Source: Chitinophagales bacterium
GTDB lineage: Bacteria > Bacteroidota > Bacteroidia > Chitinophagales > LD1
Assembly (NCBI GenBank): GCA_033578915.1
Contig: JAVQWQ010000001.1
Span: forward strand, 1-42,355
Direction of reading: 5' to 3'
DNA: 42,355 bases
The notes under the pieces are model-generated. The model searched no databases and had not been told where the DNA came from. It saw only the letters and a list, made by a program, of their open reading frames with translations. Shown piece by piece: positions 12,577 to 33,495 of this stretch. The position numbers and the translations under genes were made by a program. Position 1 is the first letter of the stretch. Each line of letters starts with the position of its first letter.

Positions 12577-14775
12577 ATGTATCTTTACGCAGTGGGTTTA
12601 AGAAGCTTCGTTACCGTTTTTTTTACGCTCGCAATTAATATTTTACTTGCACAGCCCTTATATCACGCAGCGAGTCTTGCTGTTTATCGAAATGGTATTT
12701 TGTTAGATAATGGCTGGTGTGGCGGCCTGGATCTGCCTCAGATTTCTCCTGCATTTATTGACAATGATAATTTAGAGGATCTTTTTGTTTTTGACCGCAA
12801 CAATAACCGAGGCTACGTTTTTCTTCATAAAGGGCAGGGCAGGTATGTTTATTCTTTTCACTATTCCGGTATGTTTCCTGAAATGGAAAACTGGGCGCTG
12901 CTACGGGATTTTAATAAAGACGGTGTTCCGGATATTTTTTGTTACGCCAATAGCGGCATGAAAATATTCAGAGGCAAAAGAAATGGAAACATTCTTTTCT
13001 TCGAGTTACTCACTTCATTGCTTACTTACACAGATTATTTTAATCCTGCATACCCACAGGTAAATGTTTACGTTTTGACTGACGACATACCCGGTATTAT
13101 TGATGTAAATGGTGATGGCGACATGGATATTCTTGTTTTTGGAAATCTGCTTAGCTCGTCATCGTGCCAATATTACGAAAACCAATCTGTAGAAAAGGGT
13201 TATGGTGCAGATTCTTTGATATTCGACTCTTATGGTCTTGACCAGTGCTGGGGGCGTTTCCTGGAGTCAGATATTTCTAATTCCATTACACTGGGCTACT
13301 GTAAAACAGGCGGCATAGAAGGACATGGGGCGGGCAGGCACGCCGGCTCTACACTATGCCCGTTCGACGAAGACGGTGATGGTGACCTCGATTTACTGCT
13401 GGGCGACATCACATACAATACCATGATCATGCTCAGAAACGGAGGAGACGCTCAACAGGCCGACATAAAATCTTTCGATTCAATTTTTCCTCGCTACAAT
13501 ATTCCTATCCAGTTGCCCGTTTTCCCGGCCGGATTTATTGCAGACGGTGATGGAGATGGCATCAAAGATCTATTGGTAGCTCCTAATGCGCGAAACGCAT
13601 ACAAAAATGTAAACAACGTGTTGTGGTACAAGAACACTGGCACTAACAAAAACTTCATTTTTCAATATCAAAGTGATAGTTTTCTGGTTCGAACACTATT
13701 AGACTTTGGCAGCAATGCAAAAGTGGCCGTATTTGACCACAATAGTGACGGCTTGTTAGATATTGTTGTAGGCAATAAAAGTTATTACACTCAGCAAGGA
13801 CAATTGGAGGTTTCGAGGCTTGCATTGCTTGAGAATATAGGGACACCCCAAAAACCTATGTTCAAGTTGGCCAGCGATAATTATCAAAACATAGCTCAAT
13901 TTCTGATGAAAGAACTCCAGCCCGCTTTTGGTGACTTAGACGGAGACGGCAAATCTGACATGTTGCTGGGAGACTTCAGTGGTTACCTGCATTTTTTTAA
14001 AAACACCGGTGGAAATATGGCTGCTTTCCCTACGCTAACTGCTCCACAATATTTTAACATTGATGCCTCTGTGTTGGCAGCGCCTTACATCTATGATGTG
14101 GACAGCGATGGAGATAATGATATTATTTGTGGTCGGAGAGATGGCACGCTTAATTGGTATATCAACTTTGGTTCAAAAACCAACCCGTCTTTTCACAAAG
14201 ATTCTGTTGTAACAAATTGGGGGAAAATAAATATTACCGGCATTTATGAAGTGGAGGGTTGTACTCAGCCTGTCATATACCGAAAAAGTGATTCCTTGTT
14301 TTTATATACTGGCTCTAATCGCGGCACTGTATTTAAATTCTACATACCTGACCCTTTGCAGCGTAATGTTGTTTTTCAGCTTGTTGACTCCAATTTTCTT
14401 AACTTTAACGTTGGTCGCAGAGCTACTATAGCCATCGCTGATTTTGACGGTGATAGCATACCGGATATTGTAACAGGAAATGCCAGTGGAGGATTGGACT
14501 TTTTTACATCAACTCCACAAACCCCTTCGAATACCAGCGATCTGGCAGAATCAGATTCAGAATGGTATTTCTTTCCTAATCCTGCAGGTTCATATCTGTC
14601 AGTGGCCACAAAAAATAGAGAGCCAAAGCGCTTAGTGTTGATGGATATAGCGGGCAATAGAATTTGGGAAGAAGTGATACACGACAAAACATTTATATCT
14701 CTTGAAGGCCTTCCAAACGGAATTTATTTTCTTCAATCATCCAAGCAAACCAAGAAGCTGATTGTTGTGAAGTAA
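12577..14775 (+). CDS. FG-GAP/VCBS-repeat beta-propeller protein with T9SS C-terminal sorting domain
   Basis: 732 aa with a signal peptide. Seven Ca-binding-type repeats (DVNGDGDMDILVFG, DEDGDGDLDLLLGD, ADGDGDGIKDLLVA, DHNSDGLLDIVVGN, GDLDGDGKSDMLLGD, YDVDSDGDNDIICG, ADFDGDSIPDIVTGN). C-terminal ~75 aa CTD (FFPNPAGSYLSV ... LPNGIYFLQ ... KLIVVK), roughly 14548..14772. Confidence 0.9.
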   Translation: MYLYAVGLRSFVTVFFTLAINILLAQPLYHAASLAVYRNGILLDNGWCGGLDLPQISPAFIDNDNLEDLFVFDRNNNRGYVFLHKGQGRYVYSFHYSGMFPEMENWALLRDFNKDGVPDIFCYANSGMKIFRGKRNGNILFFELLTSLLTYTDYFNPAYPQVNVYVLTDDIPGIIDVNGDGDMDILVFGNLLSSSSCQYYENQSVEKGYGADSLIFDSYGLDQCWGRFLESDISNSITLGYCKTGGIEGHGAGRHAGSTLCPFDEDGDGDLDLLLGDITYNTMIMLRNGGDAQQADIKSFDSIFPRYNIPIQLPVFPAGFIADGDGDGIKDLLVAPNARNAYKNVNNVLWYKNTGTNKNFIFQYQSDSFLVRTLLDFGSNAKVAVFDHNSDGLLDIVVGNKSYYTQQGQLEVSRLALLENIGTPQKPMFKLASDNYQNIAQFLMKELQPAFGDLDGDGKSDMLLGDFSGYLHFFKNTGGNMAAFPTLTAPQYFNIDASVLAAPYIYDVDSDGDNDIICGRRDGTLNWYINFGSKTNPSFHKDSVVTNWGKINITGIYEVEGCTQPVIYRKSDSLFLYTGSNRGTVFKFYIPDPLQRNVVFQLVDSNFLNFNVGRRATIAIADFDGDSIPDIVTGNASGGLDFFTSTPQTPSNTSDLAESDSEWYFFPNPAGSYLSVATKNREPKRLVLMDIAGNRIWEEVIHDKTFISLEGLPNGIYFLQSSKQTKKLIVVK

Positions 14776-19101: not shown

Positions 19102-20841
19102 TTACCTGATAATAACCATTTTGCCGAACCCTTTTTTAAAGTATTTATCAAAGCTTTCGCTGCGATGCTCGATGGGTTCATTATTTAATTTGGTAACTAC
19201 TCTGTAAAAATACACACCGTTTGCGAGGAGATCGCCATACTGATCGCGTCCGTCCCATGCATATTCAGTGATATTGTTTCCAATCCTAATAGGACCCAAC
19301 TCATGGCGTTGAATTTCTTTTACTACAGTTCCTTTTATATTCATAATCTGTATTTTAAAATAGTCGGGAACTTCACTGCCGGTGAGTGTAAATACAAAAC
19401 GAGTGGATGTAGTAAACGGATTAGGATAGTTGAGCACATTGGTGATAGTAGTTCTGGTAATTACCTCAAAATCTGTTTTATAATCGTACAAAATATTTCC
19501 TTCGTATCGCTGAGGCGAACTGCTGCTTTGGTTGCCGCTGCGGTCGCGGTCGCTTACATAGAGGGTGTATCTTCCATCCGTTGTAAATACCGGTTTCAGC
19601 TCCACGCGAGCCGTATTGTTTTTAGCTAAATTAGCAGGGTTTGCCGGATAGAAGCTCATCACCTGATTGTCATAGGCAAATCTGCGCGGAGTTGATTCAT
19701 TCGGATATTTGATGTAAACCTTTATCAAAGAGGTGTCATCAAGCGCCAGAAATTTGTTTTCATCTTTTAGAGTAATAACGATATGAGGCTTAGCAGAAAC
19801 TATTTCACCGTTTACGATGTGTCGGCCATCAAAAGTTACATCCAGCAAGGGATTTAAGTTATCTCCGCTTGTTGTAAATGAAACTTCAGCGATGTTATTG
19901 AAATGATACTGTTCAGGCTGATGATATATTCCGAGAGGGTTTGTTTCAATATATATCCGATTAATGCCCTGAAAATTATTTCCGGCAGCCGGAGTGTTTA
20001 ATCTTAGAATCATAGTTTGAAATCCTCGTAATGAATCCTGCTTGACAAAATAGGTAACAGGATTAAGGAGTGCATCGCGAATGATATATTTGGTTGTGAG
20101 ACTATCCATAGGATATTCTGTAACATTCTCCACCGCTATTTCAAGATTTAGATTGCTGCCTAGCAAGATACTATCCGTGAATACAAAGTGAGCGCTCGGA
20201 TTTAGAGCAGCCTCAGGTACCTCTTTGTAAAGAACTCTCCAGTATTTTAATTGTGTGGGAGTTCGGTCAATCACATCTTTGGTTACCAACTCCAATTGTA
20301 TAAACGGGTAAACCGATGCGTCTATAAACTGGATATTGTTGTCAGGTGCTGCGGTGCGCAGCAACAACACCTTTTGGTTTGCTTTATTAATTCCGTAAAT
20401 GGCTACAGTATCCTCATCATAAGTTGGGTTTTCCTTGCTCCTCTTTTGCCAATGAAAACTGCCCCATTCCTGAGCAGGGCCGATAACAGTTGAGGTCATG
20501 GCACCCTGGAACCATGTACCAACAAAATCAGTAGAAGCTGTAACTATACTTGTAGAGGGAGGATTTCCAAGCCTGCTGAGCGCAGGATAATTAAAGTTTC
20601 CTTTTTGAGTAAAGTAAATGTAGGGCGCGCTGATAGCTCCGTTTTTAAGCTGTTGAAATGTGGTTGCACCCAATTTGTTAACCAAAGCATTAACCAATAC
20701 CGTATCCCACAAAGTATAGTTTTGCGGTTGCCAGTTTATCGTATAAACCAACACATAAAAACCATTGGGAATAGAATCAATGAAATCACTGATTACCTGC
20801 GCCCATGTTTTATTGGTAAATACTGGATGGTTGGCATTCAC
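19102..20841 (-). CDS. C-terminal portion of the PorU-like C25 peptidase gene (Ig-like/beta-rich region plus T9SS CTD); track start is a GTG in frame with the upstream ORF
   Basis: 579 aa with no signal peptide. Ends in a FlgD-Ig/T9SS-type CTD (NYPNPFTTSTRFVF ... WDGRDQYGDLLANGVYFYRVV ... KMVIIR, about 19105..19380). The 36 codons between it and the TGA at 20950..20952 are open in the same frame. Confidence 0.75.
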   Translation of the reverse strand: MNANHPVFTNKTWAQVISDFIDSIPNGFYVLVYTINWQPQNYTLWDTVLVNALVNKLGATTFQQLKNGAISAPYIYFTQKGNFNYPALSRLGNPPSTSIVTASTDFVGTWFQGAMTSTVIGPAQEWGSFHWQKRSKENPTYDEDTVAIYGINKANQKVLLLRTAAPDNNIQFIDASVYPFIQLELVTKDVIDRTPTQLKYWRVLYKEVPEAALNPSAHFVFTDSILLGSNLNLEIAVENVTEYPMDSLTTKYIIRDALLNPVTYFVKQDSLRGFQTMILRLNTPAAGNNFQGINRIYIETNPLGIYHQPEQYHFNNIAEVSFTTSGDNLNPLLDVTFDGRHIVNGEIVSAKPHIVITLKDENKFLALDDTSLIKVYIKYPNESTPRRFAYDNQVMSFYPANPANLAKNNTARVELKPVFTTDGRYTLYVSDRDRSGNQSSSSPQRYEGNILYDYKTDFEVITRTTITNVLNYPNPFTTSTRFVFTLTGSEVPDYFKIQIMNIKGTVVKEIQRHELGPIRIGNNITEYAWDGRDQYGDLLANGVYFYRVVTKLNNEPIEHRSESFDKYFKKGFGKMVIIR

Positions 20842-20949
20842 TGTTCTGAAGTCAAAGCCATATTGCTCAATTGCCGATCCCGGCTGTACATGAATATTGC
20901 CATATTTACCATAAGAAGATGGCCCGTAATTAATACTTGCCCACGGCTT

Positions 20950-20952
20950 TCA
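20950..20952 (-). other. Single in-frame TGA interrupting an otherwise continuous ~1716-codon reading frame (19102..24252)
   Basis: The minus strand reads ...GAA AGT GCA ACA TGA AAG CCG TGG GCA AGT ATT AAT TAC... The frame continues without a stop into ORF 20841..19102. Confidence 0.9.
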
Positions 20953-23900
20953 TGTTGCACTTTCAATAACGGCAAATACCAAACCATTCGTATATCCCAG
21001 TTTATTGATAAATCGCCCTCTATGCATCAACACGCCATTATAATACCAGGAAACAGCCAAAGGGTCGCCCCCGCCGGCCTGCACGTCTATCTGATTAGCT
21101 GTTTTAGGGAAGCGGAACAAACGATCACTATCATAATTTAATAAGCTAAACTTATCTTTCAGATACTGATAATGATGGCTTTGATTCCAGCCAGGATATT
21201 CATTTGCCAGATAAATAAATGAGCTATAGTGCCAGTTTTTCCCTGTACCACCGCTGTCTATCCCTACCCTCCAGTAGTAAACCGTACTGTCTTGCATTAT
21301 GATATTTGGAGTGAACTTTACTACTCCTCCTTTTTGAGCCACCACTCCTGACACTCGCAACGGTGAGTTGAAAAGTTCTGTGGTATCTATTTCAAATCTG
21401 TATGCACGATAAGGCGCAAAAGGATTAACCGTAGAGGCCTTCAAGGTTACGCCTTGCTTAGGCACAATGGCAAATTCATACGGATATATGGGAATAATAT
21501 CATCGCTTTGGATATTCGTAACAATAGCTCCCAGCGGAATACGATTGTTGAATTCGGCCATTTCATCCACTTTTTCTTCGCTTTCTATAAATGCGCCAAA
21601 TTCATTAGCACCATATCCAATATAGCTGTTTCCGTAAGGTACAAGAGTAGGAATGCGAAAGGTAACAGTGTCCTTGTAGTAGTTGCGGGAAAGTGGCACG
21701 TGGTAAGTAAGATCTAAAAAGTTTGAAGGATTTTGGGGGTCGCGCACCCTACGGTATAAAGTGGCACGTATGGTGTTCGGCAAAGCCTTACCGAGATTAG
21801 TTACAATAAGTTTAGCCTCAAAAGTATCACTTGCAGCAGTGATGTTGGACGGATTAAAATAAAGCGAAGAGTTATCTATGGCATAATCGGGTTTTGGATA
21901 TTGATTGATGGTGAGCGCAGGATCACCGTGCAGGGTGAATTCATATCCTACCATCATAGTAAAATGGTCGCCAGAGCAACAGGAATTCAGGTCGCTCATT
22001 GTTTTGCTGATAATGTCTCCAAGTGATCTGGTGTAAAAACTCCGTGCAAGATTTTCATAAATTCGGGTGGTGTAAATATTTAAACTGGCCGAAAGCGAAA
22101 GGCCTGTTGTAGCCAAAAAGGCAATAGCACCAGTGTTCAACCCCTGATAATTTTCGTTGGCACGCGGGATAACAAATCGTTCGCTGTAGTTGCGCGATGC
22201 GCTGTGAATAAAGCCCACTAAACAACCATTGGAAATAATTATCGGATAACGGTTATAGTTGGTGTAATTATTTGGTTCATCAATACTCACATCGAAACCC
22301 AGGTTAGATGATGAATGTCCAAAAAAGGTAAGCAGAGATATTCCGCGGTTTATGATACTTTTTACAACCTGCTGCTGGGATTGATCTATTGGCGCAGGAG
22401 AATTTTTAGAGAATGTAGTAACTTTTGCACCATAAGATGTGTCCTCGATAATACGCTTCCAATTATTGACGTAACTGGCAAGGATAACCTGCTCTGTAGC
22501 AGAGGTGCCTCCAGAAAAATGCAGCACTTGTTTCATCCATTCCTTTTCCGGTATGCTTTGATTAGGAGCATATTGTGCTTGTAGCGATTCATAGGTCTTG
22601 AGTTTGTCCAGATATACTTTTATGTCATCTTGCGTTTGGGCTGCAAGACGGCCAATAGCAACGCTGGGAATGTTGCTCCCTATAGGACATGCCAACAAAA
22701 TATCAGAACCAGGGTAGCCAAATGTAGGCACAAGGCACTGATTGCGCGCAGCGGCACTCACTCGCATATCAGGATATTCGCGTGCCTTTCCTAATAACAA
22801 GACATAACGAGGTTTTCTGTTTTGAGACCAGTTATTCACTGCATACTGTATAAAATTAACTATTGCCAGAGGATGCTTAGATATGCCGTAAGCAAACTGA
22901 TCGTATAATTGTTCCACATCCACCGTTACTGCAATGAATTTTCCACCAAAACCTCCGTTCACATCGCGATAGAGGCGATATTGTTCAACCTGGCTTTTAG
23001 GGTCATTAACTCCTAAGGAGGGATGCGAAATGATAACAAAATTTCCTTGATTGGCTAAAGCAGTATAATTCTTGAATTCTATTGGAGTGATAGCTGTGAT
23101 ATTTGTAATAATGCTCTCGCTACCCAATATCAAATCTCTGTTTACAGATGAAGGCGGAAGAGCGAATTTACTACTGCCGGCAGGAGAAGTTATCCGCAGG
23201 CCATTAGTGATATCATATAAAATTAAGGTCGAATTATTGTCGTTAAAGTTTGAAATGTCGAGATACTTTCGACCAGGCCCAGCATTAATCTGAAAGCGGA
23301 AAAAGTTTGCACCTCCAAAGTCGAATAACCGTGGATAGGTGATTTCAATAAGCTGTATTCTGTTTTGTTGGGTGCCGGGCGAGTTGTCGCTAAAGCGATA
23401 TGAAACGGGCGTAGTACCGTTTGCAATGAGGCCAAGTGGTATTTGCTGTTCAAATTTACTTTGACGCCATCCGGCATAGCTGGTGTTGAATACTACTTGA
23501 CCGTTGACTTTTACCGTGAGTATATGAGGAGAGTTGCTGCGGCTCAGGTGATAAAACCTGAAGCGTGCAGTACCGGGGCTTCCCGGCCCTGTATAAACGA
23601 AAGGAGTTGGGATGTTAGTAACTGTTTCTGTAGGTGAGCTGTTAATCCAACCACCGCTCCATCCTTCTCCTTCTTCGTAGAGCGATTTCGAAAGCTCATC
23701 TTTTCCTGCATAGTAAACTTTACCTTCGAAAAAACTATTCAGAAAAACCGTGAGCGAAGGATGCATGAAAAAATTTTCCTTTGGGGGGAGATTGGTAAGG
23801 TCGTTATTGATATTAATCAATCTTCTGTTGTTGGTACTTGAAGAGGTTGTAAGGAAATATACTGAGGTATCTGTAAATAAACTGTAATAAGGATGTGGCT

Positions 23901-24252
23901 GTGCGCCTCTGGGCACATAGAGCAAACTATCTATTTCGCCCCTGTTGCGCACTCCAAAAAACTCGATAAAATCACCCTGGCCTAAGGCTGTGTTGTTGGA
24001 TATGTAAATAGGAACCTGTTGGCCATTGTGATACATCACAATATTAGCAGGGTTTATCATACTAATATTTGGAATCGCAGCAGCCAGAGTAGAATATGGG
24101 ATTCTGTATATTCCATCTTGCCACACCTTGATTTTAAAATGTGTGCGGTTGTAATCTATCCACTCGTTACCGTAATTCTGAGCCGCAACTCTGCAACAAA
24201 TTATTGCCAAAGCAATAGCTATGTAGCAAAAAATTCGGTTCAGGTTTTTCAT
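20950..24252 (-). CDS. Peptidase C25 (gingipain/PorU-like) family protein, N-terminal 1100 codons up to an in-frame TGA
   Basis: Signal peptide MKNLNRIFCYIAIALAIICCRVAAQ. C25-type core (PRYVLLLGKAREYP ... VPTFGYPGSD). Clan-CD catalytic dyad candidates FFGHSS (His codon 22315..22317) and IIISNGCLVG (Cys codon 22222..22224). Start overlaps the upstream porV-like stop by ATGA. Confidence 0.8.
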   Translation of the reverse strand: MKNLNRIFCYIAIALAIICCRVAAQNYGNEWIDYNRTHFKIKVWQDGIYRIPYSTLAAAIPNISMINPANIVMYHNGQQVPIYISNNTALGQGDFIEFFGVRNRGEIDSLLYVPRGAQPHPYYSLFTDTSVYFLTTSSSTNNRRLININNDLTNLPPKENFFMHPSLTVFLNSFFEGKVYYAGKDELSKSLYEEGEGWSGGWINSSPTETVTNIPTPFVYTGPGSPGTARFRFYHLSRSNSPHILTVKVNGQVVFNTSYAGWRQSKFEQQIPLGLIANGTTPVSYRFSDNSPGTQQNRIQLIEITYPRLFDFGGANFFRFQINAGPGRKYLDISNFNDNNSTLILYDITNGLRITSPAGSSKFALPPSSVNRDLILGSESIITNITAITPIEFKNYTALANQGNFVIISHPSLGVNDPKSQVEQYRLYRDVNGGFGGKFIAVTVDVEQLYDQFAYGISKHPLAIVNFIQYAVNNWSQNRKPRYVLLLGKAREYPDMRVSAAARNQCLVPTFGYPGSDILLACPIGSNIPSVAIGRLAAQTQDDIKVYLDKLKTYESLQAQYAPNQSIPEKEWMKQVLHFSGGTSATEQVILASYVNNWKRIIEDTSYGAKVTTFSKNSPAPIDQSQQQVVKSIINRGISLLTFFGHSSSNLGFDVSIDEPNNYTNYNRYPIIISNGCLVGFIHSASRNYSERFVIPRANENYQGLNTGAIAFLATTGLSLSASLNIYTTRIYENLARSFYTRSLGDIISKTMSDLNSCCSGDHFTMMVGYEFTLHGDPALTINQYPKPDYAIDNSSLYFNPSNITAASDTFEAKLIVTNLGKALPNTIRATLYRRVRDPQNPSNFLDLTYHVPLSRNYYKDTVTFRIPTLVPYGNSYIGYGANEFGAFIESEEKVDEMAEFNNRIPLGAIVTNIQSDDIIPIYPYEFAIVPKQGVTLKASTVNPFAPYRAYRFEIDTTELFNSPLRVSGVVAQKGGVVKFTPNIIMQDSTVYYWRVGIDSGGTGKNWHYSSFIYLANEYPGWNQSHHYQYLKDKFSLLNYDSDRLFRFPKTANQIDVQAGGGDPLAVSWYYNGVLMHRGRFINKLGYTNGLVFAVIESAT

Positions 24253-25349
24253 GGTTTCCTTTTGTTAATGTCAAGGCGAAGCGAGATTACATTGGAATAA
24301 AGTCCGGTAGAGCCAGTATTGTTACTGTTTAAAGTTGTAAGATTGGTTAAGGCATAATCAAGAGAAATCACTTTGATGTGCACACCTACACCCATACATG
24401 GCGATAATGAGAATGATTGTTTACCATCTTCGGCATAAATCCGTTGAAGATTATTAAAACCACCGCGTATATAACCGATATTGAACAAATTTAGTTCAAG
24501 GCCGGCATTAATATCCATACTGATAGGTTTAGCCGAGAGCAACACATTACGCCTGCCATCGGTACTGAAAATAAAATTAGCTTCAGGTAGGATAAAAAAT
24601 TTGTTTTTAATGGAAACTTTGTAAGCAAGTCCAAGATGAATATGAGGAACGGTAATTTCGGTAGTACTGGCCGGTAGCTGGTTATTGCTTTGCAGTAAAA
24701 CTCTTTTTTCTTCTTCGGTAAATGTAAAATCCCAGGCTGCAAACGTGGTGGTGATGTCGCGAAGCATAAGGCCGGCTTGCAGACCCTTCCAGCGATACTG
24801 AAGGCCTGCATCTATTCCAAAACCAAACGCTTTAGCAAAAGTTCCCACCTGCCGGTAAATAACTTTAGCGCTGCCACCAACTGTTAGCCCTTCTACGGGC
24901 AGTTTCTGCGCATAGTGAAACATAAATGCATAGTCTGCTACGGAAAAAGAGCGAATATTGTTGTAGTTGATACTATTGTCCGGGCCAATTAGAAACAAAG
25001 TATTTGGAATATCGTCCACACCGAAACGATAAAAAGAAATACCGATTACACTTTTTTTATCGCGAATAGGAACAGCAAAAGCTCCGAAATCCCACTTGGC
25101 AATACCGGCAAAATATTCAGTGTGCATGAAACCTAACTGAAAGGTATTTTGTATGCGAGCCAACCCTGCGGGATTGTAATACGCGCTGTAAACATCTTCA
25201 CATGAAGCTGCCTGGGCAGTACCCATAGCTAAACCCCTTGCACCTACACCAATGTTCAAAAACTCATTACTGTACTTTCGAACCGTTTGAGACATAGTGT
25301 AGTAGCACATACTGGTTGCAACAAGTATCAATAGGTAGGTTTTTGTCAT
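24249..25349 (-). CDS. PorV/PorQ-family outer-membrane beta-barrel (T9SS shuttle-like)
   Basis: 366 aa with a signal peptide. N-terminal signature NEFLNIGVGARGLAMGTAQAA..DVYSAYYNPAGLA, characteristic of PorV(LptO)/PorQ. Alternating beta-strand pattern to the C-terminus. Translationally coupled (ATGA) to the C25 peptidase gene. Confidence 0.7.
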   Translation of the reverse strand: MTKTYLLILVATSMCYYTMSQTVRKYSNEFLNIGVGARGLAMGTAQAASCEDVYSAYYNPAGLARIQNTFQLGFMHTEYFAGIAKWDFGAFAVPIRDKKSVIGISFYRFGVDDIPNTLFLIGPDNSINYNNIRSFSVADYAFMFHYAQKLPVEGLTVGGSAKVIYRQVGTFAKAFGFGIDAGLQYRWKGLQAGLMLRDITTTFAAWDFTFTEEEKRVLLQSNNQLPASTTEITVPHIHLGLAYKVSIKNKFFILPEANFIFSTDGRRNVLLSAKPISMDINAGLELNLFNIGYIRGGFNNLQRIYAEDGKQSFSLSPCMGVGVHIKVISLDYALTNLTTLNSNNTGSTGLYSNVISLRLDINKRKP

Positions 25350-25352
25350 GTG

Positions 25353-26006
25353 TTACAAATCATCCAACAGATTTTTCCATTCTTTTACACTTTTGTAGTA
25401 CTGGTTTATTACTTCAATAATACGAAAGAGTTCGGAATTTGTCATATTAATTCCTGTAATTTTAGCATATAAAAAAGAGATGATATCTGTAATAACTTTT
25501 GAGTCGTTAAGTTGATACAAAAACCTGTTTTGCAGCATACGCTCCCGCCTCTCACACACAACTTCATATAAACTTGCTATCTGATGTTTTTCAAAATAAT
25601 GTTTAAGAGACAGCGATAATGTATTTTCAAGCATATTGTAAAAATTTTGAGTGAGACTTGGATGGCACTCCTGCAAGCATCGGTCAAAAAGAATTTCTGC
25701 CAACAGATGCGCTATAACCGAGAGACGCAAACGGCCTCGGTCAAGTTGGGCATGAACCATTCCCTTTGTCAGCATATCTGAAACTTTAACAAAAGCATCG
25801 CTTAGATGAAATTTCCTATCATCTGCATAATGTGTTATTATTCCATCATGAAAATGTATTTCTTCTTCACTTAGGCTGGCAGTTGATTTTACAATTTTTT
25901 GATTATAAACCTTTGTAAACCCTTGAACTAAATCAGGAAGAAGATTGCCAAAACAAAAGCCTGAGGACTCTGATTGCCTCAGATAGTAATGCGCCAGAAA
26001 GTACAT
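25353..26006 (-). CDS. Acyl carrier protein phosphodiesterase (AcpH)-like protein
   Basis: 217 aa. N-terminus MYFLAHYYL....GNLLPDLVQG parallels E. coli AcpH MNFLAHLHLA....GNLLADFVRG. GIITHYADD parallels GIHMHRRID. Stop is 3 nt before the porV-like ATG. Recognition is from memory of the AcpH sequence only. Confidence 0.45.
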   Translation of the reverse strand: MYFLAHYYLRQSESSGFCFGNLLPDLVQGFTKVYNQKIVKSTASLSEEEIHFHDGIITHYADDRKFHLSDAFVKVSDMLTKGMVHAQLDRGRLRLSVIAHLLAEILFDRCLQECHPSLTQNFYNMLENTLSLSLKHYFEKHQIASLYEVVCERRERMLQNRFLYQLNDSKVITDIISFLYAKITGINMTNSELFRIIEVINQYYKSVKEWKNLLDDL

Positions 26007-26121
26007 TCAAAAAATTTAACCTGAATAATTTTTGCCTTAAAGACTTATATCAAAAGAATTCCTTTTTCTCAATATTTATAAAACCAGTTCGTTTATAGGC
26101 ATGCCTGCATTATTTTAGCAA

Positions 26122-29100
26122 ATGATGAATGCTTCTCAATATGATGAGCTTGTCGCAAAGCTCGATGCCTTTATTCGAAAATACTATCTGAATGAATTAA
26201 TCAGAGGAATAATTTTTACCTCTATTTATATTTTAGTATTGTTTCTCGCAATCAATGTTACGGAATATTATTTGTATCTGCCTTCGCTGTATCGAAAAAT
26301 TCTTTTTTACGGATTTATATTTTCTACGTTACTTTTTGCCTGCCGCTTCATTATTGTTCCACTCGTTCATTATTTCAGATTAGGCAAAATAATTTCTCAG
26401 GAAAGAGCGGCAGAGATTATAGGTAGTCATTTTGCAGAAGTAAGAGACAAACTCCTGAACATTCTTCAGTTGAAAAAGCTTTCTGAACAGAGCGAGTACG
26501 ATTTGCTTCGGGCAAGCATAGAACAAAAAATCAGCGAGATCAGGCCAATAAATTTTTCTTTGGCGATAGACCTGTCTAAAAACAAAAAATACCTTCGTTT
26601 TCTGCTGCCTCCTGCATTACTACTCCTTTTTATTGTTATCGCAGCCCCGCGCATGATAACCGAAAGTACAAAACGCCTCTATTACAATAACCGCGAATTT
26701 GAAAAACAAGCGCCATTTCGCTTTGTTATTCAAAACAAGTCTCTGAAAGTATTACAGTACTCAGATTTCGTACTCGAAGTAAAAACAGAAGGCAAGGCGC
26801 TGCCGTCAGAGGTATTCTTAGAAACAGACAAACAAACATTTAAAATGAAGAAAAAGCAAGGCAACCTCTTCTCCTTTGAATTTACATCAATAGAACGCCC
26901 GATTAATTTTCGCTTTTCCGCTGCGGGATTTAATTCTTCAACATACCAACTTGAAATAATTGAAAAGCCTTCGTTATTAAGTTTTGAAGTTCGCTGCGAT
27001 TATCCCGCCTACACCGGAAAATCTGACGAGACTCTAAAAAGCATGGGAGACCTTAGTGTTCCTCAAGGGACAAAACTCACGTGGCAAATAAAAACACGCA
27101 GCGCTACGGCTGTCAATGTTAATTTTGGAGATCTGGCAACTGCTACCGCGCGGCCAATATCTGAAAATAATTTTGTGTTTGACCATACCGCACGGCAACC
27201 GCTGCGTTATACAATTTATGTTGAAAACAACAACACCCGCACCTTTGACTCTGTTACGTACCAATTACACGTTATTCCTGATCTTTATCCAACTATAAGC
27301 GTTAGCGAGAAACGCGATTCCATCAATAAGGATTACTTCTACTACATAGGCGAAGCAGGTGATGATTACGGTATAAGAAACCTTGTCTTTCGTTATTTTA
27401 TAGAACGCGATGATTCCGCCACATATCCAAATGTACAACAGACAGTAAATGTGCCTATTCCTTCCGGCAGTAGTTCTGCGCGTTTCACACATTTCTGGAA
27501 TATAAAAGATATTGGCCTGAGGCCAGGAGACAACATGCGGTATTATTTTGAAGTTTGGGACAACGATGCCGTCAATGGCAGCAAGAGCACACGCTCGCAA
27601 ATGCTGCAATTTCAAATGCCTTCACAGCGCGCCATTGAGCAGGAAATAAACCGCCAGAGCGAAGACATTAAAAACACTCTTGCAAAATCTCTCAAAGAAG
27701 CAAAAGAACTAAAACAAAAAATGAAAGAATCGCAGGAGAAGCTCCTTGAGAAAAAAAATCTGAATTGGGAAGACAAGAAAAACCTGAGCGACCTTGCAGC
27801 CAAGCAGAAAAACCTGGAAGAGCAACTCAAGGAAATAAAAAATAAACTGAACGATGCTCTCAAAAAGCAAGATGAATTTTCTCCGGTGAGCGAGCAGCTA
27901 AAGCAAAAACAAGAAAAACTCAAAGAACTATTTGAAAGAGTCTTAGACGATGAAATAAAAAAACTATATGAAAAGCTGGAAAAGCTTCTTGAGGAATTGA
28001 ACAAGAAAGATGCATTGGAAAAAATGAGCGAAATGGAGATGAGCAATGAAAAACTTGAAAAAGAACTCGATCGGATGCTGGAGTTGTTCAAAAAACTGGA
28101 GTTTAACCGAAAACTCGAAGAAACAGCTAATAAGCTGGAACAACTTGCCAAAAAAGAAGAGGAACTGGCTAAGCAAACAGAGCAGCAAGGAGACAAATAT
28201 AACTCTTCTACACAGCAAAATGAAAAGGAAAAACAACAACTGGTAGAAGAACAAAAAAAGCTGGAACAGCAATTGAAAGATGCCAAACAAGATTTCGATG
28301 AATTGAAAAAACTTAACGAGGAGAGTAAGAGCGGACAGGACATGAAAGAGTCCGAGCAGAATATGGAAACCGCAGAAAAACAAATGGAGGAAGCACGCGA
28401 ACAGATACAGCAAAACCAAAACGATAAAGCTGCAAAAAATCAAAAAAGCGCTGCCAACAACCTGAAAAATGCTGCTCGCAAAATGAAAGACATGAAAATG
28501 AAAATGGAGCAGGATGCTTTGGCTGAAGACCTTCAGGCGCTCAGACAACTGCTGAAAAACATTATGCAACTTTCTTTTGAACAGGAAAAACTCATTGATG
28601 AACTAAAAGTTCTGAATATCAATACTCCCAGATATGTTCAACTCATGAAGGCACAGCAGCGCATACGCGAAAACTCCAAAATGGTAGAAGACAGTCTGTA
28701 TGCACTTGCCCGAAGGCAAATAAGCATTGAGAGCTTTGTTACAAAGGAAATGAACAACGTCAACCGTTATCTTGCCAAATCGCTCCAGCATCTGGAAGAA
28801 AGAAATGTTTCAAATGCATTGAGCGACCAGCAGTTTGTTATGACCGGTTATAATAACCTGGCTTTAATGCTTAGTGAAAGCCTGCAGAATTTGCAAATGC
28901 AGATGAGCGGCAGCGAAAGCGATCAGGAACAGAGCGGCAAACCCAACGCAGCTTGCAAAAAACCCGGTAAAAACAGCAAGGGCATTCCTAACCTTTCGCA
29001 AATGCAAAAGCAACTTAACGACAAAATCAATCAATTGAGCGAGATGATAAACAGGCAAGGACAGCAAGGCAATCGCGAATATCAACGTGAACTGAGCAAA

Positions 29101-29517
29101 CAGTTCAGCGAACTTGCTGCCAAACAGGCAGAACTGAGAAAAGCGCTCGAAAAACTTAATCAAGAACAAAATAAAGATGGAAAAAATTCTCTTGGCAACC
29201 TTGGCGAAGCAATAGATAAAATGAATCAGACTGAAACACAACTGGTAAATAAACAGCTTACCACAGAAATGCTTAAAAGACAGCAGGAGATCCTTACACG
29301 CTTGCTGGAAGCTGAAAATGCAATGCGGCAACGCGATGAGCAACCCGAACGCGAGAGCCGTACAGGACAGGATATGCCGCGAAAGTTGCCGCCCTCGCTG
29401 GAAGAATACCTGAAACAGCAACAGCAACAAGCCGATTTCCTCAAAGCCACTCCTGCAGAATTAAAGCCTTTCTATAAACAACTTTCTGAAATTTATTTCA
29501 GAGAACTGGCGCGCTAA
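26122..29517 (+). CDS. DUF4175-like membrane-anchored giant coiled-coil protein
   Basis: 1131 aa. N-terminal helix plus two TM helices (YDELVAKLDAFIRKYYLNELIRGIIF...), SHFAEVRDKLLNILQL motif, and a ~350 aa beta-rich domain. Then a ~600 aa K/E/Q-rich coiled coil (about 27620..29400). The family name is recalled, not searched. Confidence 0.6.
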   Translation: MMNASQYDELVAKLDAFIRKYYLNELIRGIIFTSIYILVLFLAINVTEYYLYLPSLYRKILFYGFIFSTLLFACRFIIVPLVHYFRLGKIISQERAAEIIGSHFAEVRDKLLNILQLKKLSEQSEYDLLRASIEQKISEIRPINFSLAIDLSKNKKYLRFLLPPALLLLFIVIAAPRMITESTKRLYYNNREFEKQAPFRFVIQNKSLKVLQYSDFVLEVKTEGKALPSEVFLETDKQTFKMKKKQGNLFSFEFTSIERPINFRFSAAGFNSSTYQLEIIEKPSLLSFEVRCDYPAYTGKSDETLKSMGDLSVPQGTKLTWQIKTRSATAVNVNFGDLATATARPISENNFVFDHTARQPLRYTIYVENNNTRTFDSVTYQLHVIPDLYPTISVSEKRDSINKDYFYYIGEAGDDYGIRNLVFRYFIERDDSATYPNVQQTVNVPIPSGSSSARFTHFWNIKDIGLRPGDNMRYYFEVWDNDAVNGSKSTRSQMLQFQMPSQRAIEQEINRQSEDIKNTLAKSLKEAKELKQKMKESQEKLLEKKNLNWEDKKNLSDLAAKQKNLEEQLKEIKNKLNDALKKQDEFSPVSEQLKQKQEKLKELFERVLDDEIKKLYEKLEKLLEELNKKDALEKMSEMEMSNEKLEKELDRMLELFKKLEFNRKLEETANKLEQLAKKEEELAKQTEQQGDKYNSSTQQNEKEKQQLVEEQKKLEQQLKDAKQDFDELKKLNEESKSGQDMKESEQNMETAEKQMEEAREQIQQNQNDKAAKNQKSAANNLKNAARKMKDMKMKMEQDALAEDLQALRQLLKNIMQLSFEQEKLIDELKVLNINTPRYVQLMKAQQRIRENSKMVEDSLYALARRQISIESFVTKEMNNVNRYLAKSLQHLEERNVSNALSDQQFVMTGYNNLALMLSESLQNLQMQMSGSESDQEQSGKPNAACKKPGKNSKGIPNLSQMQKQLNDKINQLSEMINRQGQQGNREYQRELSKQFSELAAKQAELRKALEKLNQEQNKDGKNSLGNLGEAIDKMNQTETQLVNKQLTTEMLKRQQEILTRLLEAENAMRQRDEQPERESRTGQDMPRKLPPSLEEYLKQQQQQADFLKATPAELKPFYKQLSEIYFRELAR

Positions 29518-31806: not shown

Positions 31807-33495
31807 ATGAAAAAATATCTATCGCTGATTTTTGTCTTACCCTTTGTTTCTGTTTATGCACAAAGCACTTTTACACAAATCTATCAAATCTTAAATACGC
31901 GTTGCACCAATAGCGCGTGCCATAGCGCAGCCTCGGGTCACAACCTTCGTTTTGACGGATCAGAGAATGATGTGTTTAATGCTATCTTCAATAAGCCACC
32001 GGAGAATACAGTTGCTAAAAATAAGCTCGACAGGTTGGTTTTTGTCAATCAACCCTATGAGAGTTTTCTGCTGCGCAAAATCAACAAAAACCTCGATACC
32101 GACTTAGACCTAGAGCAGGGAGAAGGAAATGTAATGCTTGATATCAACGGGCAACCTCTTGCCAACCATGAGGTTGAGTTAATTCGCCAGTGGATAATTA
32201 ATGGCGCAAAGAAAACCGGTATAACGGTGGACACTGCGGTTATAAATGAATATTACCGCGATCCCTATCATGCCTTTTTACAAAAACCTGTAAAACCAGC
32301 TCCCGGAGAAGGAAAACGCATACGCTGCGGGCCTATTTTCCTGCCAAAATCGGGGCCAGGCAAAGAGTTTGAGATTCTATTAAAGTATGAGCTGAATTTC
32401 CCCTACGAAGCAGAGATATATAAAATTGACGGTTTCATGAACTATGAGAGCCACCACTTCCTCCTTTTTAGATTTAATGATTCAGCTAGCGCGGCTCAAG
32501 AGCCAGATGGGATAAGAGTAGTAAGCCTTACCGGAGGTACCACATCTTTCGATGGTAATAAACAACTCACCGGCGCGTGGCAAGACGATGAAGAGATTGA
32601 TTTGCCTAAAGGGACAGCGCTGTTCTGGCCAAAGAAAGTCTGGTTAGACCTCAATTATCACATCAAAAACTACGGAAATCAACACGTGCTACCCTGCGAC
32701 TTTTACTGCAATATTTACTATACACCTAGACAGCCCAAAACCATTGAAATGAAAAGCAGATTAGTAAATAGCATAACGCTAGGGGAACTGGGAAGTGGCG
32801 GCAATCAAGGATTTTTACCGCCAAACTCCGGGCCGGTAACAAGATACCTCAACGACCCCGATAACGGAAGAAACGAAGTGCGCTATTTATGGATGTTTAA
32901 TTCCCATACTCATCAATACGGTATTGACTTTGACCTTTTCGAATACGATAAATCAAAACCTAACAGACTGGGTAAGCAGCTGTACGAAGGGTTCTGGAAT
33001 TATAAACTGAATTACGACATGGGGCAATATCTTTGGGATCATCCTCCTATTCGATACTGGCCTAATTTCTACCCTGTGGATATGAAAATCGGACTCCGCG
33101 CCCGAGCCATGTATAATAATACAAGCAATAAAGTGGTTCGCTTTGGATTTACGACAGAAGATGAAATGTTTTTATATTATTATATGTACACCACACGGCT
33201 TCCCGACGGATGGGTGAGTGCACCTGACATTGCTACTAAAATCAACTCGTTTGGCATATACCCAAATCCTGCCTCAGACAAAGCTTTTGTTATTGTAGAA
33301 TCTAAAGAACCTATTGATATCAAGGTTATGATATGCGACATACATGGAAAGGTTATCGCAGAGTTGTTCAGTGGACAAACACAGATTGGAGTAAACCAAT
33401 ATTCCATACCGGATAACCTGCCGCAAGGAGTATATCTCGCGCAGTTGTTTTTCAACGGCCAGATAGAAAATAAAAAATTTGTGATATCAAGATAA
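31807..33495 (+). CDS. Secreted copper type II monooxygenase (PHM/DBH)-like protein with N-terminal cytochrome-like C-x4-CH module and T9SS CTD
   Basis: 562 aa with a signal peptide. IYQILNTRCTNSACH (31903..31923) ... LIRQWIINGA. HH in ESHHFLLF (32452..32457). LNYHIKNYGNQH. HxH in NSHTHQYG (32905..32913). Met in TEDEMFLYYYMY (33166..33168). CTD IYPNPASDKAFV ... LPQGVYLAQLFF ... KFVISR (about 33253..33492). Confidence 0.6.
   Translation: MKKYLSLIFVLPFVSVYAQSTFTQIYQILNTRCTNSACHSAASGHNLRFDGSENDVFNAIFNKPPENTVAKNKLDRLVFVNQPYESFLLRKINKNLDTDLDLEQGEGNVMLDINGQPLANHEVELIRQWIINGAKKTGITVDTAVINEYYRDPYHAFLQKPVKPAPGEGKRIRCGPIFLPKSGPGKEFEILLKYELNFPYEAEIYKIDGFMNYESHHFLLFRFNDSASAAQEPDGIRVVSLTGGTTSFDGNKQLTGAWQDDEEIDLPKGTALFWPKKVWLDLNYHIKNYGNQHVLPCDFYCNIYYTPRQPKTIEMKSRLVNSITLGELGSGGNQGFLPPNSGPVTRYLNDPDNGRNEVRYLWMFNSHTHQYGIDFDLFEYDKSKPNRLGKQLYEGFWNYKLNYDMGQYLWDHPPIRYWPNFYPVDMKIGLRARAMYNNTSNKVVRFGFTTEDEMFLYYYMYTTRLPDGWVSAPDIATKINSFGIYPNPASDKAFVIVESKEPIDIKVMICDIHGKVIAELFSGQTQIGVNQYSIPDNLPQGVYLAQLFFNGQIENKKFVISR

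Follow-up and report, generated by a model that had tools for sequence, protein, structure and literature searches.

The DNA analysed here is a 42,355-nucleotide stretch from a Chitinophagales bacterium (positions 1 to 42,355 of contig JAVQWQ010000001.1, GenBank assembly GCA_033578915.1), and the whole of it is referred to below as the window. At positions 19102–26006 it contains three genes in the same orientation on the minus strand, the last two of which likely encode a second T9SS (type IX secretion system) barrel–peptidase pair. The leading, acpH-like gene (25353–26006) encodes a protein of 217 residues and ends in TAA. It is followed by porV2 (24249–25349), which ends in TGA and encodes a 366-residue outer-membrane barrel of the PorV/PorQ family with a signal peptide, and by porU2 (19102–24252), the reading frame of a C25 cysteine peptidase with 1716 sense positions and one in-frame TGA. 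The stop codon of the acpH-like gene and the start codon of porV2 are separated by 3 nt (25350–25352), and the stop of porV2 and the start of porU2 share four nucleotides (ATGA, 24249–24252), exactly as described in an earlier, sequence-only annotation of this DNA (the original prediction). Its estimate of about 1716 codons for a peptidase gene read through to its end is likewise exact, although the TGA, at codon 1101, was not flagged there as a disruption.

The only sizeable non-coding gap associated with the three genes is the 115-nt stretch 5′ of the acpH-like gene (26007–26121, minus strand), which lies opposite a divergent gene for a DUF4175 protein and likely contains the promoter. A promoter scan gave one sigma-70-like match at 26139–26112, and the Bacteroidota TAnnTTTG motif was not found within the gap; a scan for terminators gave as little guidance as that for promoters. 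The acpH-like gene is probably co-transcribed with porV2 and porU2 at this locus.

Family assignment of the barrel and the peptidase

The porV2 product matches the NCBIfam model NF052325 (putative type IX sorting system protein PorV2) with 440.4 bits, well above the cut-off of 325. After its own family PorQ is the nearest (NF033711, 69.2 bits), yet this score falls below the PorQ cut-off of 220, and the match to the canonical PorV model (NF033710) amounts to 30.4 bits at a cut-off of 250. The porU2 product matches the equivalog-domain model NF052324 (putative type IX secretion system sortase PorU2) over residues 11–903 with 726.2 bits (cut-off 450), whereas the canonical PorU model NF033707 yields 132.7 bits, below its cut-off of 420. 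The adjacent NCBIfam entries NF052323 and NF052326 describe unrelated families. The proposal in the original prediction that the two genes form a paralogous pair, distinct from the housekeeping porU–porV, is correct but not new, as the family has already been named by NCBI curators.

The Peptidase_C25 domain of Pfam (PF01364) covers residues 405–781 of PorU2 (190 bits). The catalytic dyad region (22222–22317, minus strand) comprises the motifs FFGH, with His646 (CAT, 22315–22317), and SNGC, with Cys677 (TGT, 22222–22224), both of which are almost invariant in 77 sequences. In a profile search they align with the motifs YAGH and TATC of Porphyromonas gingivalis PorU (PDB entry 6ZA2), an entry that was not reached by phmmer with the single PorU2 sequence, which gave no match in the PDB. 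Downstream of the TGA lies a C-terminal domain (CTD) resembling a sorting domain (19189–19428, minus strand). The C-terminal region matches positions 866–1079 of the PorU model with 64 bits and FlgD_ig with 23.1 bits, and it aligns with the C-terminus of PorU in 6ZA2; a CTD of the peptidase itself, as originally proposed, is thus present, although its score with the general sorting-domain model is borderline (see below). An AlphaFold model of residues 881–1716, with a predicted local distance difference test score (pLDDT) of 85.6, consists of beta-sandwich domains in series and one alpha/beta domain. PorU in 6ZA2 is the top structural match of this C-terminal half (E = 4.6e-11), ahead of multi-Ig-domain proteins of a generic kind.

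More than 1,200 relatives of PorU2 were found in a large protein collection, and since the best 120 are nearly all 1680–1790 residues long, the long form is the norm of the family and no oddity of this locus. Compared with the canonical PorU of the same genus (1290 residues) PorU2 is ∼430 residues longer, with most of the additional length situated after the C25 domain and before the C-terminal domains. Comparison of the porU2 genes of two relatives (G003 and G004) gives a ratio of nonsynonymous to synonymous substitution rates (dN/dS) of 0.045, indicative of strong purifying selection.

Two further proteins encoded in the window, at 12577–14775 and 31807–33495 (both plus strand), carry type A T9SS sorting domains, with 35 and 44 bits on TIGR04183; together with the peptidase they make up the three CTD-bearing genes within ∼21 kb that had been noticed before. 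Of the genes flanking the trio, the divergent one (26122–29517, plus strand) encodes a DUF4175 protein of 1131 residues for which no homologue was found in the relatives' loci searched, and the gene downstream of the trio, encoding a PAS histidine kinase, occurs beside it again only in G007 among these loci.

Relation to the canonical PorU, PorV and PorQ proteins

The pair was compared with its homologs in 30 related genomes, which represent 18 genera and 13 families; counts over 31 include the genome of the window itself. Canonical PorU is present in all 30 relatives with more than 1000 bits, PorU2 scores above its cut-off in 28 of the 31 genomes, and PorV2 is found in 29 of the 31. When 45 C25 proteins are placed in a maximum-likelihood tree, the 15 PorU and the 30 PorU2 sequences lie on opposite sides of a single branch, with a support of 100 in the Shimodaira–Hasegawa-like approximate likelihood ratio test (SH-aLRT) and a length of ∼4 substitutions per site; the PorU2 of the window nests with sequences of the same genus. 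The distinct clade for which a C25 phylogeny had been put forward as a check is thus obtained with 100% support, and together with the separate NCBIfam families and the universal presence of canonical PorU in the relatives it sets the pair apart from the housekeeping proteins. The gene order differs as well. In 10 of 15 canonical loci of the relatives porU is directly followed by porV, with PorU proteins of 1126–1310 residues, in agreement with the canonical order and size from which the original prediction started, whereas the barrel gene comes first in the window, so that the order is indeed reversed.

The canonical porU gene is split into two adjacent frames in three of the relatives, G001 (C108:7050-10371), G022 (C2:362449-365810) and G023 (C7:275040-278406), which suggests that breaks in such long genes are not rare in these assemblies. 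The 6-Mb genome of G028 contains four PorU2-like genes (L049, L055, L056 and L057) encoding 1721, 1746, 1839 and 1065 residues, one of which follows porV2.

The assembly to which the window belongs is a metagenome-assembled genome (MAG) of 2.4 Mb in 251 contigs, 90% complete as judged by marker genes. It contains a canonical PorV (contig C33:7561-8874, 439 bits) and a separate PorQ (contig C2:17740-18870, 278 bits). No canonical PorU turned up in the assembly: the peptidase of the window is its sole C25 peptidase, and a tblastn search with the PorU of a congener added nothing. As the assemblies of congeners amount to 3.0–4.1 Mb, the absence of PorU is most likely due to missing sequence, and assembly incompleteness would be the simplest explanation. 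The synteny with the congener G004 does not extend beyond the three genes, so that the missing porU could not be placed. The search for a second, canonical pair elsewhere in the genome, which had been put forward as a check, therefore recovered PorV (and PorQ) but not PorU, and is answered only through the relatives.

A pattern scan of species-representative genomes detected PorV2 in at least 587 species. Among the matches listed are Ferruginibacter, Terrimonas, Flavisolibacter, Lacibacter and Chitinophaga, all of them genera of Chitinophagaceae, and MAGs of Vicingaceae/Flavobacteriales and Sphingobacteriales; cultured candidates for carriers of the pair are Agriterribacter humi and Pseudoflavitalea sp. 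Among the best 80 loci from these other species, porU2 starts between −29 and +100 nt from the end of porV2 in 71 of the 72 that extend far enough to contain it. A divergently oriented tyrS, the gene for tyrosyl-tRNA ligase, is situated upstream in 61 of the 80, and clustering of the neighbouring genes revealed no constant partner besides porU2, with the exception of tyrS. The locus in the window thus shares its length class, the order of its genes and their coupled translation with hundreds of NF052324/NF052325 loci, but, unlike them, its porU2 carries an in-frame TGA.

The in-frame TGA of porU2

With translation table 11 the TGA at codon 1101 (20950–20952, minus strand) splits the porU2 frame into a product of 1100 residues and an open frame of 579–615 residues. 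In contrast, the PorU2 homologues are uninterrupted proteins of 1655–1786 residues, and all full-length porU2 genes of the relatives are open, without internal stops. The affected codon aligns with a glycine in 39 of 39 homologues and is GGT in the two nearest relatives. Beyond the TGA no sign of decay is evident in the comparison with G004: no further stops or frameshifts occur, the amino-acid identity amounts to 0.80 in the upstream and 0.81 in the downstream part, and the dN values are 0.151 and 0.141, respectively.

The uninterrupted continuation of the frame and the location of the TGA at a conserved glycine, which TGA encodes in genetic code 25, would fit decoding of the codon as glycine, or else as tryptophan or selenocysteine or by programmed read-through, so that full-length PorU2 is produced. 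However, no tRNA with the anticodon UCA and no tRNA-Sec were detected in the genome, and long open reading frames bridged by a single stop codon show no excess of TGA (15 pairs, against 15 for TAG and 63 for TAA). Moreover, porV2 is itself terminated by a TGA just four bases into porU2, and none of the relatives has a TGA at the site in question. Recoding was rejected on these grounds as very unlikely, and a full-length product made by decoding of the TGA is highly improbable.

What remains for the TGA is a nonsense mutation of very recent date or an error in the assembly. An error of sequencing or assembly, or a consensus that has captured a minority allele, would leave the porU2 of the organism intact and would be consistent with the 615 downstream codons, which show neither relaxation nor further lesions, and with the splits in the canonical porU of G001, G022 and G023. 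A second MAG from the same population (GCA_025054665.1, contig JANWYY010000297.1, locus L160) corresponds to positions 21231–26838 of the window with one mismatch in 5608 nt (99.98% identity); its contig stops 279 nt short of the TGA, and a break so close to the site may hint at strain variation. On the other hand, the site lies neither in a homopolymer nor in a repeat, and a short-read consensus seldom contains substitution errors. No intact conspecific copy was found in the protein collection or in a scan of metagenome contigs, where the exact pattern around the TGA gave no hits. An intact gene hidden behind such an error is possible, but on the whole somewhat doubtful.

Whatever its origin, the TGA separates the catalytic region from the C-terminal export and anchor domain. 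Judged from its sequence, porU2 as written cannot yield a surface-anchored enzyme: the N-terminal product would lack the CTD, although it would carry both signal peptide and catalytic domain, the C-terminal product would lack a signal peptide, and neither would be expected to reach the cell surface. The porU2 gene of this MAG should accordingly be annotated with caution as interrupted, and a pseudogene label or a check of the reads is warranted.

The acpH-like gene and the tyrS-anchored block

The acpH-like protein lacks a signal peptide, and none of the NCBIfam models matches it. With PF04336 (ACP_PD, DUF479), the Pfam family of acyl carrier protein (ACP) phosphodiesterases, it reaches 24.1 bits, short of the cut-off at 27; the same family matches 11 of 22 acpH-like orthologues at E-values up to 0.01. 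A search with a profile of the 22 orthologues brings up proteins from Pedobacter, Sphingobacterium and Mucilaginibacter that carry PF04336 and the name 'ACP phosphodiesterase', with E-values of 1e-47 to 1e-38. The protein shares its overall length and the N-terminal M-x-F-L-A-H motif with Escherichia coli AcpH, and eight residues (H6, D25, H59, D63, H67, H100, E104 and D108) are invariant among the orthologues, a pattern typical of a metal-dependent hydrolase in which these residues are putative ligands. By sequence the protein is a remote member of the ACP phosphodiesterase/DUF479 superfamily, with the hydrolysis of 4′-phosphopantetheine from holo-ACP as a putative activity. Its AlphaFold 2 model is all-alpha, with a pLDDT of 93. 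Neither sequence nor profile searches of the PDB gave a significant match, and a Foldseek search with the model returned none below E = 1; the protein thus appears to belong to a branch of the superfamily without a solved structural relative. Zn_dep_PLPC is weakly matched by 7 of the 22 orthologues. A likeness to zinc-dependent phospholipase C or P1 nuclease is not claimed, as it was suggested only by weak Pfam matches and the spacing of the ligands, with no match in Foldseek.

In 21 of the 29 PorV2-bearing relatives an acpH-like gene lies directly 5′ of porV2, either overlapping with its neighbour or leaving a small gap, so that the three-gene arrangement is conserved among relatives as anticipated. 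This conservation does not extend to the family as a whole. Among the loci of other species it occupies this position in just 4–5 of ∼67 and is absent there in ∼62, and in six relatives that possess the pair no acpH-like gene was detected anywhere. Conversely, acpH-like genes without a neighbouring porV2 are found in genomes of Sphingobacterium, Mucilaginibacter and Catalinimonas; in the last case the gene after acpH encodes a protein of 344 residues that is not PorV2-like. The conserved synteny that had been supposed to link this gene to the pair is therefore kept in part of the relatives only.

The acpH-like gene may nevertheless be a working part of the module, one whose product supplies or regenerates the anchor or substrate used by PorV2 and PorU2, either a lipid or glycan in phosphodiester linkage or a phosphopantetheine-bearing carrier. 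This possibility is in keeping with the tight spacing, both in the window and in the 21 relatives, and with the invariance of the putative metal-binding residues. A cytoplasmic location, expected for a protein without a signal peptide, is difficult to reconcile with the outer-membrane location of PorV2 and PorU2, and the distribution described above, with either partner occurring without the other, argues in the same direction. Unlinked copies follow a gene for a PlsC-type acyltransferase in G020, and panC and panD together with an LPG-synthase-like membrane gene in G028 (L050, G028:C1:4362000-4372000). At L050 the acpH-like gene also faces a gene whose product has weak matches to S1-P1 nuclease and zinc-dependent phospholipase C.

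The divergent tyrS offers a different explanation for the adjacency. The complete block of divergent tyrS followed by acpH, porV2 and porU2 is present in 11 loci; tyrS with porV2 and porU2, but without acpH, occurs in Chitinophagaceae, and tyrS with acpH, but without porV2, in Sphingobacteriales. The simplest reading of these combinations is an old syntenic block that has undergone lineage-specific losses. The common tyrS neighbour thereby makes the adjacency of acpH and porV2 explicable as inherited synteny and accounts for the recurrence of an ACP-phosphodiesterase-like gene beside the pair. As the acpH-like gene has been lost or separated in many lineages, it does not count among the obligate components of the module, and a direct function of its product in the module is unlikely.

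The order acpH–porV2 is also retained where porU2 is not adjacent. In Pedobacter chitinilyticus (L153) the divergent tyrS is followed by acpH and porV2 (482 bits) with no porU2 nearby, and acpH followed by porV2 without an adjacent porU2 is found in the lineage of G024/L159 as well. These cases, which also speak for a part of the acpH-like protein in the module, can be taken to mean that it is functionally tied to PorV2 rather than to PorU2, since the two genes remain linked across two orders; we regard such a tie as quite improbable. If it existed, the compound handled by PorV2 might be a lipid or glycan in phosphodiester linkage, or an intermediate bound to a carrier, made or recycled by the cytoplasmic acpH-like enzyme, and ACP or lipid metabolism would be joined to a second route of T9SS surface anchoring.

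Predicted role of PorV2 and PorU2

To understand how PorV2 and PorU2 may function, they can be compared with the T9SS barrels and surface proteins that have been characterized. PorU is a peptidase with a Cys/His dyad, and its CTD remains bound to PorV, as the CTD of PorZ remains bound to PorQ; the cognate PorV-like barrels have been proposed to shield these CTDs from cleavage (PMC10202324). With PorU–PorV of the P. gingivalis attachment complex (PorU structure 6ZA2) the present pair shares, by homology, the C25 fold, the His/Cys dyad, a C-terminal domain that would be retained and a barrel partner of the PorV family. With PorZ–PorQ it would have in common a CTD-bearing surface protein and a dedicated PorV-family barrel that retains the CTD (PMC10202324); PorZ is beta-propeller-like, whereas PorU2 is a peptidase. 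The same pairing principle is encountered in type B cargo, for which PMC9143113 describes gene pairs of a CTD protein and a PorP/SprF-like barrel.

Taken together, the family assignments, the separate PorU2 clade and the coupled gene order make it likely that the locus encodes a PorV2–PorU2 module, a translationally coupled two-gene paralogue of the T9SS barrel/peptidase pairs that occurs side by side with canonical PorU, PorV and PorQ in Chitinophagales and in some further Bacteroidota. By analogy with PorU and PorZ, an intact PorU2 would cross the inner membrane with the help of its Sec signal peptide, and its C-terminal domain would direct it through the outer membrane by way of the T9SS. 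It would then retain this domain, dock to the cognate PorV2 and stay at the cell surface. There its C25 domain would act as a peptidase or transpeptidase, cleaving some of the proteins that are secreted or exposed at the surface, and their transfer to an anchor may follow. The acpH-like protein would be a cytoplasmic, metal-dependent phosphodiesterase-like enzyme whose gene belongs to the old block but lies outside the obligate module.

PorU2 might instead be T9SS cargo and not part of the machinery, i.e., a large surface protease or adhesin that acts on external substrates and has PorV2 as its dedicated anchor. The chain of Ig-like beta-sandwich domains in its C-terminal half resembles those of adhesins and alpha-2-macroglobulins, three of the four PorU2-like paralogues of G028 have no PorV2 partner, PorV2 is more similar to the anchor PorQ than to the shuttle PorV, and pairs of a barrel and a CTD protein are known from the type B cargo mentioned above. 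Set against this, most genomes have a single conserved copy of near-constant length (1655–1786 residues), the dN/dS of 0.045 is low, and the nearest relative in both structure and sequence is the sortase PorU. Copy number, length and selection together favour a conserved cellular role over a variable cargo, and the cargo explanation seems rather unlikely, if plausible.

Several points weigh against the interpretation as a sortase-like module and its shuttle. The CTD of PorU2 stays just below the cut-off of TIGR04183 (22.3 bits against 23). The scores of PorV2, nearer to PorQ than to PorV, make a shuttle role doubtful. The missing canonical PorU leaves the coexistence of both systems unshown for this organism alone. 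The persistence of acpH–porV2 without a nearby porU2 could reflect a functional tie and not mere synteny. Finally, no experimental paper on PorU2 or PorV2 was found in the literature searched, and the sortase activity of PorU2, its cargo and the anchoring by PorV2 are inferred by analogy.

As the family has already been named, the contribution of this particular locus to the question of PorU2/PorV2 function is modest. It adds the block of divergent tyrS with acpH, porV2 and porU2, the separable distributions of the pair and the acpH-like gene, and an interrupted porU2. PorU2 and PorV2 nonetheless represent a widespread second barrel–peptidase pair of the T9SS, and the identity of their cargo or anchor would extend the present picture of the system, in which there is one sortase.

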